A stretch of DNA of 64,000 nt from an uncultured Chloroflexia bacterium (GTDB taxonomy: Bacteria > Chloroflexota > UBA6077 > JACCZL01), in NCBI GenBank assembly GCA_963765765.1, contig CAVXYC010000015.1, positions 1 through 64,000 of the forward strand. The letters are read 5' to 3'. The position numbers and the translations under genes were made by a program. Of this stretch, positions 18,615 through 61,089 are shown piece after piece. A model generated the notes under the pieces. That model did not search any database, had not been told where the DNA came from, and saw only the letters and a list, made by a program, of their open reading frames with translations. Within the stretch, counting starts at the first letter, position 1, and each line of letters opens with the position of its first letter.

Positions 18615-19772
18615 ATGACTCAAGCCGCAACCGTCCACGATCACGCCTGGGCCAGCGAATGCGTCATCTGCGCTACGGCGCTCGATGGGTTCGCCAGCCT
18701 TCCGTTTCGTCTCATGGGCGTGTCGCGTAGCGCTCGCAACCCCAACCTCTGCAATCGCTGCAATACGCATGCGGAGGAAGGCCGCGTCGCAGAGATCACC
18801 GTGCTGTTCGCGGACCTCTCATCATTCACGGAGCTCACTCATGAGCTTGGCCCGGAGCGAACGCACGAGGTTGTCGATGCCTTCCTGCAGATGGCGACGT
18901 ACTGCCTGGTTCGCCACGACGCGTTCATCGACAAATACGTCGGTGATGCAGTGATGGCCTTCTTCAATGTCCCCATCCGTAGAGTAGACCACTCTGCCCG
19001 TGCGGTTGCCGCGGCCCAAGATATCCTGGCGGGAATCCCGGCGCTCAACGAGCGTTTCGACTTGAACCTCAACGCGGTCGTATCCATCGCCGCCGGCTTC
19101 GCGCGGGTAGGCCGGCTCGGCTCATCGGATGGAAAGGACTACACCGCCATAGGCGAGGTGGTTAACCTTGCCGCCAGGCTGGAGGGTGTAGCACGTCGCG
19201 GCGAGATCGTCGTGGATGAAACAGTCTATTCGGCGGTGACGTCTGAAATCGGTGCCGTCACCGCTGAAGCTGTGAACCTGAAAGGTTTCAAGGGTCCCGT
19301 CCATGCCTATCGCATTGGCGTTGTCCCTGGCGCTCGGGCCATAGGCAGCACTATTTCAAGCAGCAGCGCGGACGAGCCCCGCATGCTGGTGACTCGACTC
19401 GGCTCGCTGGTGTTCGGGATTCTCGGAGCACCATGCGCCATCGGCACGCTCATTGGACCGCTGGCGGTGGCCGTCGGAGCGGGAGCGCTCTTCGGGACAC
19501 TTGCGTCCACTGTCTTCGATGTGCTGGATACCGCTCCCATTCGAATTCCGACACTCATCCTCGGCACGGTAGGGGCTATGGCCAATCTCTACACCGTCTG
19601 GCACGCTCGCCAGATTCGAAAGAGCGCTGCCGCGGGGAGTCCGCTTTCGATGACCACCACCCACGAGCGTCGCAGAGCCCGCATCGTGATTACGCTTGCT
19701 GTGTTGACGCTCGCGGTTATTTTCTTTGAGCTCTACGCCCATTCCAACATCATGGGCCGCTCCTGGCCGTAG
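18615..19772 (+). CDS. Class III adenylate cyclase with N-terminal CxxC-CxxC Zn ribbon and C-terminal 3-TM domain
   Basis: VLFADLSSFT, DKYVGDAVMA, YTAIGEVVNLAARLE. CVIC...CNRC at the N-terminus. Hydrophobic C-terminal segments. Confidence 0.88.
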   Translation: MTQAATVHDHAWASECVICATALDGFASLPFRLMGVSRSARNPNLCNRCNTHAEEGRVAEITVLFADLSSFTELTHELGPERTHEVVDAFLQMATYCLVRHDAFIDKYVGDAVMAFFNVPIRRVDHSARAVAAAQDILAGIPALNERFDLNLNAVVSIAAGFARVGRLGSSDGKDYTAIGEVVNLAARLEGVARRGEIVVDETVYSAVTSEIGAVTAEAVNLKGFKGPVHAYRIGVVPGARAIGSTISSSSADEPRMLVTRLGSLVFGILGAPCAIGTLIGPLAVAVGAGALFGTLASTVFDVLDTAPIRIPTLILGTVGAMANLYTVWHARQIRKSAAAGSPLSMTTTHERRRARIVITLAVLTLAVIFFELYAHSNIMGRSWP

Positions 19773-19893
19773 GGATCTTCGCTATTGGTCGGACGGTCCC
19801 AGACACTCCAAACGGCCGTGGTAGTTTGTTGACACGGGCACTCAGGCCCGACTCTTGCCAGTGTGAGGGAGTCACATCAGAAGTGAGTGGGGT

Positions 19894-20838
19894 ATGCCAC
19901 CCAAGCGCGTTTACGTAGTCATCAATCCCGCGGCCGGTCAGGACCGGCCAGTTCTCGCGATCTTGAATCGCGCCTTTCGTGGGGCGAATCTGGATTGGGA
20001 TATCGGTATCACCAAAGCCGAAGGCGACGCTGCACGCCTCGCTCGCTCCGCATGCGAAGCCGGGTACGATACCATCGCGGCTCTCGGTGGTGACGGTACC
20101 GTTATGGAAGTCGCGAGCAGCCTGGTAGGGAGGGAAACACCCCTCGCCATCTTGCCCGGCGGTACGGCTAATGTGATGTCAGTGGAGCTCGGAGTACCCA
20201 GCGATCTGACGCTGGCAACGTCGCTTATCACCGGACCGCACGAGATACGGGCGATCGATGTAGGGCATCTCCAGAATCGCAACTTCCTCTTACGGGTTGG
20301 TATCGGTCTCGAGGCTGCAATGGTCCAGGGAGCAGAGCGGGAGCTCAAGGACAGGGTCGGTGTGCTCGCTTACGGGGTCTCGGCCGTGCAGGCGTTGCGG
20401 GAGCCCATGCTCTCCCACTATCAGATCGTGCTGGATGGTGAGATTGTTGAGATCAACGGCGTCGGCTGCGTCATAGCAAACGTTGGAAGCGTCGGGCAGG
20501 GGCAGTTCTCAATACTCCCGGATATTTCCGTCGATGACGGCCTACTGGACGTCATTGTTTTCGAACGCGCGGATCTCGCCAGTGTGCTCAGCGTGGCCAC
20601 GTCAATGATTCGGGGAATCCCAGCGGAGCAGGGGGTACAGCGTTGGAAGGCGCGCGAGGTCACAGTACTGGCGGATCCTGAACAGCCAGTTCAGGTCGAT
20701 GGGGAGATCATTGAGCCCGGCCCCATCAGCGTGTGGGTGGAGCCAGGTGCTCTGCGTGTCATCGTGCCGGCAGTCGCTTTGCCTCTAGGTGAGGACCCGG
20801 TCGTCGGCTCAGAAACTGTAGCCCGACCTGGACTTTAG
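19894..20838 (+). CDS. Diacylglycerol/lipid kinase family (YegS/DgkB-like)
   Basis: INPAAG, GGDGTVMEV, LPGGTAN, DDGLLDV, QVDGE. Confidence 0.92.
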   Translation: MPPKRVYVVINPAAGQDRPVLAILNRAFRGANLDWDIGITKAEGDAARLARSACEAGYDTIAALGGDGTVMEVASSLVGRETPLAILPGGTANVMSVELGVPSDLTLATSLITGPHEIRAIDVGHLQNRNFLLRVGIGLEAAMVQGAERELKDRVGVLAYGVSAVQALREPMLSHYQIVLDGEIVEINGVGCVIANVGSVGQGQFSILPDISVDDGLLDVIVFERADLASVLSVATSMIRGIPAEQGVQRWKAREVTVLADPEQPVQVDGEIIEPGPISVWVEPGALRVIVPAVALPLGEDPVVGSETVARPGL

Positions 20839-27651: not shown

Positions 27652-28449
27652 ATGAGCCTCTACATCACCCTCTGGCGCATCGGATTACAAGACGCCATTC
27701 AATATCGGATCGAGGGCATCATCTGGTTCCTGTTTGATGTCGTTCCGCCCATCATGATGCTCTTCTTCTGGAGCGCGGCTTACGCAGACACTGATCAAGT
27801 GGCTGGTTACAGTCTGCCGGAGATGCTGGCGTATACACTCGGAGTCCTCGTGCTTCGAAACCTGGTCACCGTTCATGTCGAGTGGGATATCGACTACGAA
27901 GTGCGTCAGGGCACGCTTTCGAACTATCTCGTTCGACCGATCAGCCCCTGGATCGTGTGGTTTTTCAATCAGCTTAGCTGGCGAATGTGGCGAACGGCAC
28001 TTGTCTGTCCCATCCTGGCGATTGCCCTGATCACAGTCGCGCCGTCGCTCGAGCTGCCGTCCATGGATTCCACGCAGGTCTGGGGCTTCCTCGTCAGTTT
28101 GCTGCTGGCATACCTCGTCTGCTTCCTCTTCAAGCTGGTGCTTGGCTTCACGGCATTCTGGCTCACCAACATTCAAGCGGTGATCGGTCTCTCAGACGTG
28201 CTAGTCTATCTGTTTGGCGGAATCTTGATTCCAATGCAGCTTCTGCCCGAAGGACTGCAGCAGATCGCGCTCTACTTACCGCTGCAATCGATCTTTGCCT
28301 TCCCACTCAGTGTGATGCTTGGCCGCTCCCAGGGCGCCGATCTGATCGCCGGGCTGACCGGCCAGATCGTATGGTGCGGGCTTCTCGGTCTTCTCGCCGT
28401 CCTCATGTGGCGTACTGGTCTCCGACGGTACGAGGCGGTGGGCGGATGA
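27652..28449 (+). CDS. ABC-2 type permease (DUF990-like)
   Basis: QYR, IDYEVRQGTLSNYLVRP, GGILIPMQLLP, YEAVGG. ATG at 27652. Confidence 0.88.
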   Translation: MSLYITLWRIGLQDAIQYRIEGIIWFLFDVVPPIMMLFFWSAAYADTDQVAGYSLPEMLAYTLGVLVLRNLVTVHVEWDIDYEVRQGTLSNYLVRPISPWIVWFFNQLSWRMWRTALVCPILAIALITVAPSLELPSMDSTQVWGFLVSLLLAYLVCFLFKLVLGFTAFWLTNIQAVIGLSDVLVYLFGGILIPMQLLPEGLQQIALYLPLQSIFAFPLSVMLGRSQGADLIAGLTGQIVWCGLLGLLAVLMWRTGLRRYEAVGG

Positions 28450-29243
28450 GCAAGCTGCGTCACTACGCGTCGATTTACCTCGTGTTCGTGAGGACCTGTG
28501 TCATCCGTGAGATGGGGTTTCGTGGTCACTTTCTCCTGCTCGTGTTGAGCAACTCCGCCTGGACACTGCTTTCGCTCGCGTTCGCCGGATTCCTCTTCAC
28601 TAATGTCCGGTCCGTTGCAGGCTGGGACCTCAATTCCATGATTGTCCTCACAGGTACGTTCAGTCTTGTCCTGGGGCTCCTCGATGGGCTCTTCCAGACC
28701 AACATGTCCCGTCTCTCAGAGCAGGTAAATCGCGGCGAGCTCGACTACGTCCTCATCAAGCCGATCGACAGTCAGTTCTACGTGTCAACCCGATACCTCA
28801 ACCTGAACGAGATCCCAACTGTGCTGATCTCGATTGTGACCATTTCGGCTGGAATGGCTCGTCTGGGCCTGCAGCCTTCCGTCGCGGAGGTCTCCACATA
28901 TGTGCTTCTTGTGGTGTGCGCCGTAACGACCTTTTACGGTCTCTGGTTCGCAAGTGTCACGCTGGCGCTATGGTCCGGCCGAATCAACAACATCGCGTAC
29001 CTGATTCAGCCTATCGCCGATCTCGGGCGCATGCCGTCGGACATTTTTCAGGGGCTGTTTCGGATCATCTTTACGTTCATTCTGCCGGTGTCCTTGATCT
29101 CCACAGTTCCGGCTCGTTCACTGCTCGGCGTATTAGAGCCCGGGATGATCGGGTATGCGATAGTTGCCTCAGTCACCACCGTGCTCTTCTCTCGGTGGTT
29201 CTGGCAATTCTCTCTCAGTAGATACACGAGCGCCTCCAGTTAA
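28446..29243 (+). CDS. ABC-2 type permease (second subunit)
   Basis: VAGWD, GELDYVLIKPIDSQF, YTSASS. ATG overlaps the upstream stop. Confidence 0.88.
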   Translation: MSKLRHYASIYLVFVRTCVIREMGFRGHFLLLVLSNSAWTLLSLAFAGFLFTNVRSVAGWDLNSMIVLTGTFSLVLGLLDGLFQTNMSRLSEQVNRGELDYVLIKPIDSQFYVSTRYLNLNEIPTVLISIVTISAGMARLGLQPSVAEVSTYVLLVVCAVTTFYGLWFASVTLALWSGRINNIAYLIQPIADLGRMPSDIFQGLFRIIFTFILPVSLISTVPARSLLGVLEPGMIGYAIVASVTTVLFSRWFWQFSLSRYTSASS

Positions 29244-58007: not shown

Positions 58008-59212
58008 TTGCTCTGGCTGCTGCTGCTGGCGAGCTTGTTGCTGCGACTATTCTGGCTTGCCCGACCCGAGGGCGCGCTCATTTTCGACGAGAGCTACTAC
58101 GTGAATGCCGCTCGTGTGATCGCCGGGCTCCCGACAACTCAAGATCGTTACCCTAACGCTCCAGTCGGGCTTGATCCGAACACGGAGCACCCGCCGCTCG
58201 CCAAGCTCATCGTGGCCGGCTCGATTCGCGTGCTCGGGGACAACGCATATGGCTGGCGCATCCCCAGCGTCGTCTTCGGAACGCTGAGTATTGTGCTGAT
58301 GTACGGGATCACCCGTCGTCTGGGCGCTGGCCCGTACGTGGCGTTGCTGGCGGCTACACTCCTGGCGTTCGATAACCTGGTGTTCGTCCACAGCCGTATT
58401 TTTACGCTGGACATCTTCCAGCTCACCTTCATGCTCCTGGGCCTCTACTGGTACGTCGACCGACGCGCTACCCTTTCTGGCGTGGGGTTCGCGCTGGCCG
58501 CGCTCTGCAAGATTGGCGGGATATTTGGACCGCTCGCACTGATCGTCTATGAAGGCCTGCGTCTGGTACGCCGGGAGGGGCCGTGGCAGGCGGATCTGCG
58601 GCGCGCAACTCGGCGCCTGGTGCGCATGGGCGTCACCTTCATCGTCGCGTTCCTGCTGCTCCTGGGCATCACCGACCGCCTCTGGGTGGGGTACAGCCAG
58701 CCCTTTGAGCATCTCCAGCGGATCGTTGGCTACGGTCAACTACTCCGACGCGAGATTCCCCAGGGCATCGAGAGCTACCCCTGGCAGTGGCTCTGGAACG
58801 ACATCGAGATACCGTACCTGCGGGTTGACCAGGAGGTACGGGTGGGCGACGAGGTGCGTGAGAAGCGGCCGCTCATTTACTTCCTCGGAGCTATGAACCC
58901 ATTTGTCCTCGAGCTGTGGCCGTTGGCGCTTGCCTTCGTAGCCTACGCGTGGTGGTCGCGTCGACCGGAGCCGACCTGGGAGCGCTTGCGCTCGCCTGGT
59001 TCGCGGTGACCTATTTACCATTCGTCGTCCTGTCGCTGATCGGTCAGCGGATCTCCTACCTCTTTTACTTTCTCCCAAGCCTCCCGGCCATCGTGCTGGC
59101 TGGCAGCTACTTCTTGTTGAACATAGGTCTTCCCCGAGTGGTCATATGGACCTACGTCGGGGCTGTGCTACTCGCTTTCTACGGGTACTTCCCGTTCAAA
59201 CCCGTACCGTAG
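58008..59212 (+). CDS. Protein O-mannosyltransferase (PMT/GT39 family), frameshift near 58965; N-terminus may extend to ATG 57848
   Basis: FDESYYV, EHPPLAK, GWRIPS, SRIFTLDIF, SYPWQW, MNP, YLFYFLP. Confidence 0.85.
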
Positions 59213-59269
59213 GTAGCAGCAGCGGGCATTCCGATCTGCCCGCTGGTCGGCGGTCTGCCTGACCTGGAC

Positions 59270-59530
59270 TCAGGTGGCAGAGTGGCCGTTGTTGTCCGTG
59301 CAATAGGCCTGGGTGGTGAATTTGCTGATGAACGCGACCCAGCGCCCGTCGGGCTGCTCAGCCATGGTGCCGCTGTCTTGCCAGATGCCGTTCTCGCCCC
59401 ACCATGGGGAGTCGGCGGGATCACCCTGGTTCTGGTGGACGTTGTGCATGCCCAGGCCGGCCGTGAACGGCTCGCCCCACACGAGGATGCACTTGCCCGG
59501 GTGCACGATGCCTTCCAGGGCAGTGCTACG
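59270..59530 (-). pseudogene. DUF2278 (YukJ-like) C-terminal fragment
   Basis: WGEPF...GMHNVHQNQG...NGIWQD...FTTQAYCTD. The N-terminal half is not recognisable. Confidence 0.65.
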
Positions 59531-59728
59531 CCCAGAGGGTGTCGCCACTGGAACCGCCGACATCCTGTCGGCCCGGCCCCTAAAGGCCGCCTCCCGCACA
59601 CCATCGCCACCGAAGTCGAGTTCCCCGCCTGTGGCCCACTTGCAGCGTAGTCGGCGACGTTCCCTGCAACGGGAGCTTTCGGGAGGAGACTTTATGCTAC
59701 GGAAAACGCACCCAAGTTCCAGCCGCCC

Positions 59729-59757
59729 TGTCATCCTAAGCGTCTAGCGAAGGATCT
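59729..59757 (+). repeat. TGTCATCCT...GCGAAGGATCT-type REP, left copy (interrupted by the IS)
   Basis: TGTCATCCTAAGCGTCTAGCGAAGGATCT. It continues TTCCC after the IS. Confidence 0.75.
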
Positions 59758-60157
59758 TGTATCTTGAAATCCCAGCCCGTGGGCTGGGGATAACCCGCCG
59801 TCGTTGTCCGGGGGCTGCTGACGCGCCAGCAGGTGGCTTCGCTAGTCGGGTGGCCCCCTGGAACCGGGACAGCGGCAGCACGCAGGGCGGCGCCAGACGT
59901 GGGGCGGGCGCCGATCGGTGCGCGGCGCCCTGTATATGGGCACCTTGGTGGCCACGCGGTGCAACGGGGTGATCCGCGCGTTCTACCAGCGGCTGCTGAC
60001 CGCGGGGAAACCGAAGAAGGTGGCCTTGATCGCCTGCATGCGGAAACTCCTCACCACTCTGAACGCGATGAAGCGCACCGGCCAGTCATGGAACCCTCCG
60101 ATCCCATCCCCCGCCACCGAAACGGAGGCTGCGGCTTGATACGTCAAGACAGTTGCT
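59756..60157 (+). mobile_element. Internally deleted IS110-family (IS621-like) element with both ends, flanked by a CT core
   Basis: Recombinase C-terminus ASLVG(V)APWNRDSG...GGR...ALYM...GKPKKVALIACMRKLL. Left end CT|TGTATCTTGAA, right end CAAGACAGTTG|CT. Confidence 0.85.
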
Positions 60158-60183
60158 TTCCCGACGGCAACCTGGACACTGCT

Positions 60184-60216
60184 GGGGAAGATCCTTCGCT
60201 GCGCTCCAGGATGGAA
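60184..60216 (-). repeat. Same REP family, inverted right copy
   Basis: Reverse complement reads TTCCATCCTGGAGCGCAGCGAAGGATCTTCCCC. Confidence 0.75.
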
Positions 60217-60319
60217 TGGTGGCCTGATGCAGGATAGAGAAGACAGGGCGAAGAACGCTGGATAGTAAATGGCGTCAGACCGCTTAACCGAACCTCGCGC
60301 CAGAATGGTGGAATTGAAA

Positions 60320-60365
60320 CTCGCCCGGCTCGCGCTCTCCGGAATGAGACCGCGAGCCGGGCGAG
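60320..60365 (-). terminator. Hairpin/terminator downstream of the 61089 gene
   Basis: CTCGCCCGGCTCGCG ... CGCGAGCCGGGCGAG 15-bp arms, followed by TTTC on the - strand. Confidence 0.6.
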
Positions 60366-60373
60366 GCGTTTGC

Positions 60374-61089
60374 TCAAGGCTGACACCTCCGCGCGGCTGG
60401 AAGCCCCGAATCGGTGCGGTGCCTTGAGTGGGGGAGTTGCCCTCGGTTGGGGAGTTCCCGGTTTGGGGACGGCCGCCTCGCTGGCCCGCGTTCGCTGGCG
60501 CCTGACGATTGAGCTGCTGGTCTATCCGCTGATCGAGGCTCTGCTTCATAGCGTTCGCCTGCTCCGCAGTGAGCCGACCTGCAGTTACCGCCTGGTCGAT
60601 TCGCGTGATCGCCTCGTTCTTGAGAGCGCTCCCTACCGTGTTGGGGTCGACGCCATGCGCCCGTGCGACGTCAGCAAGCGTCTTGCCCGCAAGCTCCTGG
60701 CGTAGTTGGTTTGCTTCAATTCCGATTGCCCGCGCGGCTGCGTCAAGGCCAATGCCTGGTCCACCGCGCCCGCCCTGTGCACCGGACTTGGTATGCCCGC
60801 CCTGGCCGCGCTCAGGGATTCCAAGCTCTTGCCGTGTCTGTTGCATGGCCTGCTTGAGCTGGTCGACCGTGACATTCAGTTTGGCGGCCAGTGCCGCGAG
60901 GAAATTGTCCTGCTGGGCCTCCCGGTCGGCGCCCTGCGTCCCTGTGACGCCCTGACGGGGAGTCGGTGACTGGGCGGGGGTGGGCGTTTGTTGCGCCGAG
61001 ACCGTACCGGCTGCCATGCCGCCGAGCACGACGGTTGCCCCGCCAACGGCCAGCACTGCGACTGCCCGCTTCAATCCGTTCGAAACCAT
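60374..61089 (-). CDS. Secreted helical-repeat protein (true stop probably near 60374, obscured by an indel)
   Basis: Signal peptide ending VSA-Q. LAAKLNVTVDQLK, AARAIGIEANQLRQELAGKTLADVA, AVTAGRLTAEQA. The ORF-track extension to 59983 runs through a terminator and the IS. Confidence 0.7.

Follow-up and report, generated by a model that had tools for sequence, protein, structure and literature searches.

The 64,000-nucleotide stretch analysed here (the window; forward-strand positions 1 to 64,000 of contig CAVXYC010000015.1, from the assembly GCA_963765765.1 of an uncultured Chloroflexia bacterium) carries at 59758-60157 (+) a 400-bp element that is best read, with a probability of about 85%, as a decaying copy, with an internal deletion, of an IS110-group element from a lineage whose recombination is guided by a bridge RNA. 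The element, TGTAT...ACAGTTG-CT, is bracketed by CT at 59756-57 and 60156-57; its removal rejoins GCGAAGGAT-CT-TTCCC, and the minus strand of 60184-60199 reads GCGAAGGATCTTCCCC. An earlier note, made from the letters alone, had proposed an IS110/IS621-type element that has lost its interior, keeps its ends intact and is inserted at a CT core within a palindromic repeat, which reappears when the element is taken out. On re-reading, all its statements about the letters of 59729-60216 hold, the coordinates of the core and the near-identical partner arm among them, and the classification gains support from relatives with the same ends, core and target. There are no terminal inverted repeats, nor any target duplication beyond the shared 2-nt CT core, and CT is likewise shared at both junctions in the full-length relative on another contig of the same genome (C33), in the four copies of a second IS110 element of that genome (IS-B) and in 12 full-length elements considered below.

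Both ends have been retained in recognizable form. The left-end remnant (59758-59814, +, 57 nt; 86% identical with the left end of C33, 83% with that of the metagenome element L065) contains the right donor half TGTAT, a −10-like TATCTT (59760-59765), CTTGA (59763-67), a hairpin at 59771-88 made of CCCAGCCC (59771-78), GT and GGGCTGGG (59781-88), which the earlier note had picked out, and the conserved GGGGATAACCCGCCGTCGT (59786-59804). In the right end (60136-60157, +) a −35-like TTGATA (60136-60141) is followed by TCAAG (60144-48), which completes an intact 5-bp subterminal inverted repeat with CTTGA, by the left donor half ACAGTTG (60149-55) and by CT (60156-57). Joined, the ends read ACAGTTG-CT-TGTAT and would place TTGATA 18 nt (16 nt of right end and 2 nt of left end) before TATCTT, as the earlier note had it. 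These promoter-like halves are kept in relatives, and the pattern TTGAYA-N3-CAAGACAGTTGCT matched 28 stretches from many phyla. For the 400-bp element itself, a promoter and terminator scan of 59200-60700 found none, no circle or transcript of the element is seen in contigs from sequencing runs, which are without joints, and no RNA runs are listed.

Between the ends, what has been retained apart from the 57 nt of left end is the final ~345 nt, within which lies the recombinase C-terminus. The jump from one to the other that had been claimed is real; its position has been refined to a GGGG microhomology at 59811-59814 (+), common to both flanks of the lost ~0.88-0.90 kb, where the two blastn pieces overlap at query positions 82-85. 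The lost interval corresponds in L065, which is full length, to 229 to 1127 and in the C33 segment to 100 to 980, and had held the target and donor loops of the bridge RNA together with the RuvC domain. The remaining recombinase C-terminus (59811-60139, +, with its TGA stop at 60137-39) represents approximately residues 214-323 of 323, in the Tnp domain, on PF02371, NF033542 and P0001 alignments, P0001 being the 323-aa full-length recombinase that serves as reference throughout. Across 59811-60213 the alignment to the metagenome contig L064 has 363 of 405 identities (90% at the nucleotide level; E 1.6e-155) with two 1-nt gaps, and relative to L064 the remnant frame has two 1-nt deletions, at 59850/51 and 59887/88, which the earlier note did not record. 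One frame persists for the last 87 codons only, and because of the two frameshifts the D-S-G codons at 59878-86, correctly noted before, are separated from it; the role of the serine in the Tnp domain is treated in PMC11208158. The coding remnant matches NF033542 (E 7.2e-10) and has 90% amino acid identity to P0001 residues 237-323, with 77 residues from 59885-60115 reaching 95%. A six-frame search of the genome gave a partial PF02371 match at 59867-59989 (E 5.9e-4, 22.8 bits, profile 48-87), and the element's three raw ORFs had no Pfam match at E 0.1. PF01548, the DEDD RuvC-like domain, has no match in the element because that region is deleted, and the donor-loop motif is not found in the 57-nt left end. 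With the RuvC domain and the bridge RNA deleted, this is a remnant of an IS110-group member and not a working member, and, without loops or RuvC domain and with a broken tail, the copy cannot act on itself.

Full-length relatives, of the kind that the earlier note had recommended seeking as parents, exist both within the genome and outside it, and share ends, core and target. The C33 relative (18821-20107) has a left end 86% and a right part 75% identical to the window element, with ends CT|TGTATCTTG...ACAGTTG|CT inserted at GCGAAGGAT-CT-TCCCC; it is full length, with breaks at several points of the reading frame. L064 encodes an intact 323-aa protein with 99% identity to P0001, and its ends, ACAGTTGCT|TCCCCACCGG...GGGAAAGATCCTTCGCT, mark the same position of the palindrome at another locus. 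By alignment, P0001/L064 is the closest intact relative of the window element. P0001 has PF01548 and PF02371, scores 184 bits against NF033542, 'IS110 family RNA-guided transposase' (cut-off 140), and among PDB entries matches ISCro4 (9t56; E 4e-37, residues 6-309) and IS621 (8wt6; E 3.8e-35). L065 shares the ends, has 83% protein identity to P0001 and sits in an unrelated target, CAGGCGT-CT-CTGCC, with the loop AAGGCGUCU...GAGAG. PF01548 is present in P0001, IS-B and other relatives. Relatives of P0001 in species genomes are only 42-53% identical, and a protein search of 39 genomes of the order gave no close intact copy, the best outside the genome of the window being 58%. Truncated IS110 remnants are not confined to the window: at least seven of the best 120 listed proteins are ORFs of ~140-200 aa on contigs longer than 9 kb, six with PF02371 only and one without a Pfam domain. 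In the sources searched, of which ISfinder was not one, the P0001 clade has nothing beyond generic names such as 'transposase', and it may already be among the orthologues and guides listed in the supplements of the bridge-RNA papers.

IS-B, 1258 bp with a 320-aa frame, is 56% identical to P0001, has a different target loop and is apparently active. Three of its copies are 99-99.9% alike and the fourth is frameshifted; the four lie at C30:283426-284683 (-), C32:~94870-96130 (-), C16:~27750-29010 (-) and C28:31983-33236 (+). The three alike sit in GGAATGAATTCCGCA-CT-AC, and the fourth in CTCCCCA-CT-ACAG. Its loops are AUCCGCACU...UUGUAG and ACUGUUGCC...CAAG, and the donor loop (ACUGUUGC...CAAG) differs from the donor of the window element at one position.

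What the deleted interval would have specified can be read from the relatives. A pattern joining both ends was sought in 27 loci and found in 12, and the analysis is of these 12, the other 15 being left out; this genome contributes C33 and IS-B, and the remainder come from three further genomes of the order, from two metagenome contigs and from five MAGs that belong to other phyla. Every one of the 12 has CT at each junction and the donor AC(A/C)GTTG-CT-TGT(A/C)T, and in all of them the donor loop AC(A/U)GUUG...CAAG is present. A target loop lies ~70 nt upstream of the ACAGUUG...CAAG loop, its 5′ side identical with left flank and core, and its 3′ side complementary to core and right flank; in full-length relatives the loops are ~60-215 nt from the left end (147-217 in C33). 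The suggested folding of a parental left end has given the anticipated outcome, with two internal loops in C33 that match target and donor: UAAGGAUCC...GGGAAG for the target GAAGGAT-CT-TCCC, and ACAGUUGCC...CAAG for the donor ACAGTTG-CT-TG. When six left and six right positions were scored, the target loops of the 12 elements agreed with the flanks of the element that carries them at, on average, 11 of 12 positions, as against 5.98 with the flanks of other elements, and the own-flank total was reached by none of 20,000 permutations; a 1-nt shift of register lowers the left-hand score of the L048 row. The RNAalifold structure consists of two hairpins, each of stem, internal loop and stem, with 34 pairs, in which 92.1% of cells are paired vs 78.1% when shuffled and 32-44% with slid partners, and 20 pairs have compensatory changes on both sides. 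The L064 contig starts inside the target loop and keeps GGAAAG, the exact complement of CT-TTCC in the window. With their near-identical donor, the 12 elements address 10 different 11-nt targets, one being shared by the G002:C98 and Gemmatimonadales elements, and C33 and the G014 element having the right target half in common. An Rfam search of five loci at E up to 1 gave no family at gathering score, the only matches being weak antisense ones to sX15 (RF02234; L014:1533-1696 (+) at 28 bits and L003:2416-2573 (+) at 26 bits, for a gathering score of 55). They fall on the strand opposite to the bridge-RNA region, in IS-B and in the G002 element, and it may be that the Xanthomonas sRNA family sX15 models an IS110 left end in reverse orientation.

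The insertion site belongs to a repeat family. The left arm, up to and including the core CT (59728-59757, +), holds the left target half GAAGGAT; the remainder of the palindrome (60158-60214, +) supplies the right target half TTCC(C), a loop and the inverted arm GGGGAAGATCCTTCGCTGCGCTCCAGGATGG. The 'REP doublet' of the earlier note is indeed a palindromic repeat, though a single ~88-bp REPIN-like palindrome in place of a doublet, with the unit TGTCATCCTGAGCG..AGCGAAGGATCTtCCCC, loop and inverted arm, and its location is intergenic. Exact copies of the 11-mer GCGAAGGATCT number 84 across the 6.49-Mb genome vs 2.9 expected; 24 of them continue with TCCCC and two with TGTAT, the latter being the two IS copies. 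Convergent arm pairs less than 200 nt apart number 89, of which 41 are spaced 38-45 nt. A query with 31 arm bases at its left end had matches in eight of nine other genomes of the family; in six of those eight there were short matches of the arm only (G003, G004, G005, the unpublished G007 and part of G002 being named). The uninterrupted empty site at this locus would read GCGAAGGATCTTTCCC, and no orthologous empty site was found in five family genomes. The palindrome resembles REPs and REPINs in being extragenic, in having two inverted arms with a spacer and in its dozens of copies. It differs from them in that no GTAG/CGTC-type tag was noted, that no RAYT-like gene lies within 11 kb of it (none of the three Y1_Tnp, PF01797, genes of this genome is within that distance of an arm) and that the arm is exact across phyla. 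A search of the literature with the arm sequence returned only chance primer matches.

Several side observations attach to this palindrome. The 31-nt arm GTCATCCTGAGCNNAGCGAAGGATCTTCCCC is exact in 71 stretches (L084-L154) of very different phyla, which is unusual for a REP; hosts include Syntrophomonadaceae, with many copies, Coriobacteriia, Clostridia, Chloroflexota, Acidobacteriota, Gemmatimonadales, Bacteroidota, Saccharibacteria and Proteobacteria. In variant arms of the present genome ATCCT and AGGAT change together (ATGCT with AGCAT, ATCCC with GGGAT), and this co-variation hints at a hairpin within the arm. Other IS110 elements use a different CT of the same arm, GTCATC-CT-GAGCG, in G002:C98 (L025) and in a Gemmatimonadales MAG (L048/L050/L062), and carry the loop GCUCAG. 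In a Dehalococcoidales MAG (L076) there is a truncated IS110 left end at GCGAAGGAT-CT, with UAAGGAUCU in it. Small GIY-YIG genes, which we take to be COG2827-like, also keep company with the repeat: all three in this genome (G000:C15:138656-139092; C14:250040-250660; C15:732394-732555) have an arm within 53-137 nt, for which the chance at random points is ~0.026, and the C14 gene has one on both sides, while none of three large GIY-YIG genes and none of the three Y1_Tnp genes is near an arm. The relation may be a counterpart to that of REPs with RAYTs. When the C15 GIY-YIG protein was compared by tblastn with the 71 cross-phylum repeat loci, two matched, one of them 68 nt from an arm, too few to weigh for or against the link from the repeat side; the link was not found in the literature among the matches listed. 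An ambitious synthesis would have the palindrome not as a common REP bound to one lineage but as a cross-phylum mobile hairpin, possibly spread by the small GIY-YIG nucleases, that acts as a landing pad shared by several independent bridge-RNA lineages at the CT cores GTCATC-CT-GAGCG and GAAGGAT-CT-TCCC, with the relic in the window occasionally excised by IS-B through donor-only recognition; as a whole this is rather unlikely. The occurrence of the palindrome in many phyla and its link with small GIY-YIG genes may merit separate study.

The order of events and the deletion mechanism that we infer are as follows. An element of ~1.3 kb, near the P0001/L064 lineage, would have integrated as a circle, its bridge RNA pairing the target GAAGGAT-CT-TTCC with the circle-junction donor ACAGTTG-CT-TGTAT for recombination at the CT core. 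Some 0.9 kb would then have been lost between short GGGG, or perhaps CTGGGG, repeats, removing both loops and the DEDD RuvC domain, and the remainder would have drifted until it differed from its closest intact relative at ~10% of nucleotides, acquiring two frameshifts. That the recombinase itself made the deletion, by partial or 'half-match' recombination between internal pseudo-sites in place of replication slippage or illegitimate recombination at microhomology, is suggested by the C33 breakpoints, ...C-CT-GGGG and ...G-CT-GGG, with CT beside each, and by a preprint (10.64898/2026.08.14.744561) in which IS110 loci yield partial excision intermediates with flexible ends. However, the junction in the window is CCGGGGG without CT, the breakpoints resemble the donor and target guides only at CT, and 4-6 nt of microhomology suffices alone, which leaves this origin very improbable. 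Less credible still is that a full-length element was collapsed to 400 bp by assembly, even given a MAG-like genome in 33 contigs with 6.85% contamination and the frequency with which IS elements are mis-assembled. The junction lies at microhomology, and the divergence of 10-25% from every other copy leaves nothing for assembly to collapse onto. Moreover, a 241-nt contig, assembled independently from another soil run (X3), covers 59701-59940 with four other letters and one gap; within it lie 27 nt of flank outside the repeat, the left boundary and left end, the deletion junction and the two sites of frameshift. From run X1, a further contig covers 59848-60074 with one other letter. As the X3 contig shares the non-repeat flank it probably represents the same locus, and the two contigs together argue against assembly collapse and for a relic fixed at one locus.

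Against reading the element as a decayed relic is the intactness of both donor halves, the subterminal repeat and the −35 and −10 halves, which full neglect would be expected to erode. The same features are what a trans-acting enzyme could use, and the earlier note had suggested a MITE-like element that may still move in trans, which would here mean mobilization by a P0001-type element in the population or by IS-B, present in the genome and with its donor loop one mismatch away. There is precedent for the components of such movement: IS621 with guide and enzyme in trans works on a donor of 22 bp (PMC11208160), excision is reported to need recognition of the donor arm only, as a 'half-match' (preprint 10.64898/2026.08.31.748434), and MITEPpu9 is a MITE-like partner of ISPpu9 in REP sites (PMC12288879). 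Yet LD-guide mismatches are poorly tolerated by IS621 (PMC11208160), deletion of the bridge-RNA region abolished its excision (PMC13626964), and natural IS110 elements with truncated recombinases had no activity in a large survey (preprint 10.64898/2026.08.14.744561). The genome itself points the same way. In place of the several dispersed short copies of a MITE there is one copy, the search of the 6.49 Mb finding no other, and 41 perfect 12-nt targets stand empty; the earlier note had itself taken a lone copy without a parent as the mark of a dead remnant, towards which the case here leans. Bridge-RNA loci of this class in the genome are limited to the three IS-B copies and C33, the sole cognate one being that of the multiply frameshifted C33 copy. 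A recombinase both cognate and intact was not found in this genome, which is 91.8% complete, so that a partner could be unassembled. In species-representative genomes the left-junction pattern CGAAGGATCTTGTATCTT occurs in nine stretches, two of them IS110 left ends, L076 at the same point of the repeat and L080 in a different context, and the rest looking like chance; no second locus for the short form was found, the other sighting being apparently at the same locus. The run contigs are of low depth, with each run holding at most 15% of the sampled words of the stretch and none being RNA; they contain no joints, circle or empty site, and as most of the stretch is uncovered in each run that absence proves nothing. 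Continuing movement in trans is thus unsupported and distinctly unlikely, and from one genome and low-depth contigs, as distinct from reads, the relic looks immobile at present.

Among the neighbours of the relic, a PMT_2 glycosyltransferase frame at 58008-59009 (+) overlaps a second, membrane-like open frame at 58916-59212 (joint span 58008-59212, +), and the overlap may reflect a frameshift or an assembly indel near the 3′ end. The similarity of the frame at 59270-59734 (-) to DUF2278 is confined to the final third of the profile (135-204 of 206), and this frame, beside the palindrome, is probably a 5′-truncated or frameshifted gene. On the other side, the listed open frame 59983-61089 (-) of a gene for a secreted-looking protein runs into the element and the repeat, with a cupin gene further on.

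The relic itself is ordinary, and its value is as a pointer. With C33, L064 and L065 it gives the target, the donor and the bridge-RNA scaffold that go naturally with an uncharacterised clade of 323-aa recombinases, and the 12 elements with shared donor and varied targets amount to a small natural reprogramming series. Among known systems, a MITE-like IS110 partner in REP sites is already on record in MITEPpu9 of Pseudomonas putida, which like the present element is a short derivative with IS110-family ends and a 'tnp_end' remnant (PMC12288879). It differs in having eight copies, an sRNA gene and minicircles, as against a single copy with no sign of mobility and no evident cargo. The ISCro4 transposase (9t56) is the best solved-structure match to P0001, compared by entry name and alignment only. 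IS621 differs in its target, ATCAGGC-CT-AC as against GAAGGAT-CT-T(T/C)CC in a different repeat family; in the ~85 extra nt of left end and the duplicated GGGGATAAC motif of the present clade; and in possessing the loops and RuvC domain that the window copy is without. The likeness to IS621 nonetheless extends to the CT core, to insertion in a palindromic repeat, to the P0001 protein match (E 3.8e-35), to a −35-like sequence at the right end with a −10-like one at the left, to the left-end bridge RNA, with target and donor loops, of its full-length relatives, and to a donor identical at 12 of 14 positions, ACAGTTG-CT-TGTAT here and ACAGTAT-CT-TGTAT in IS621, the latter having been given correctly in the earlier note and being printed as ACAGTATCTTGTAT in the Methods of PMC13396178.
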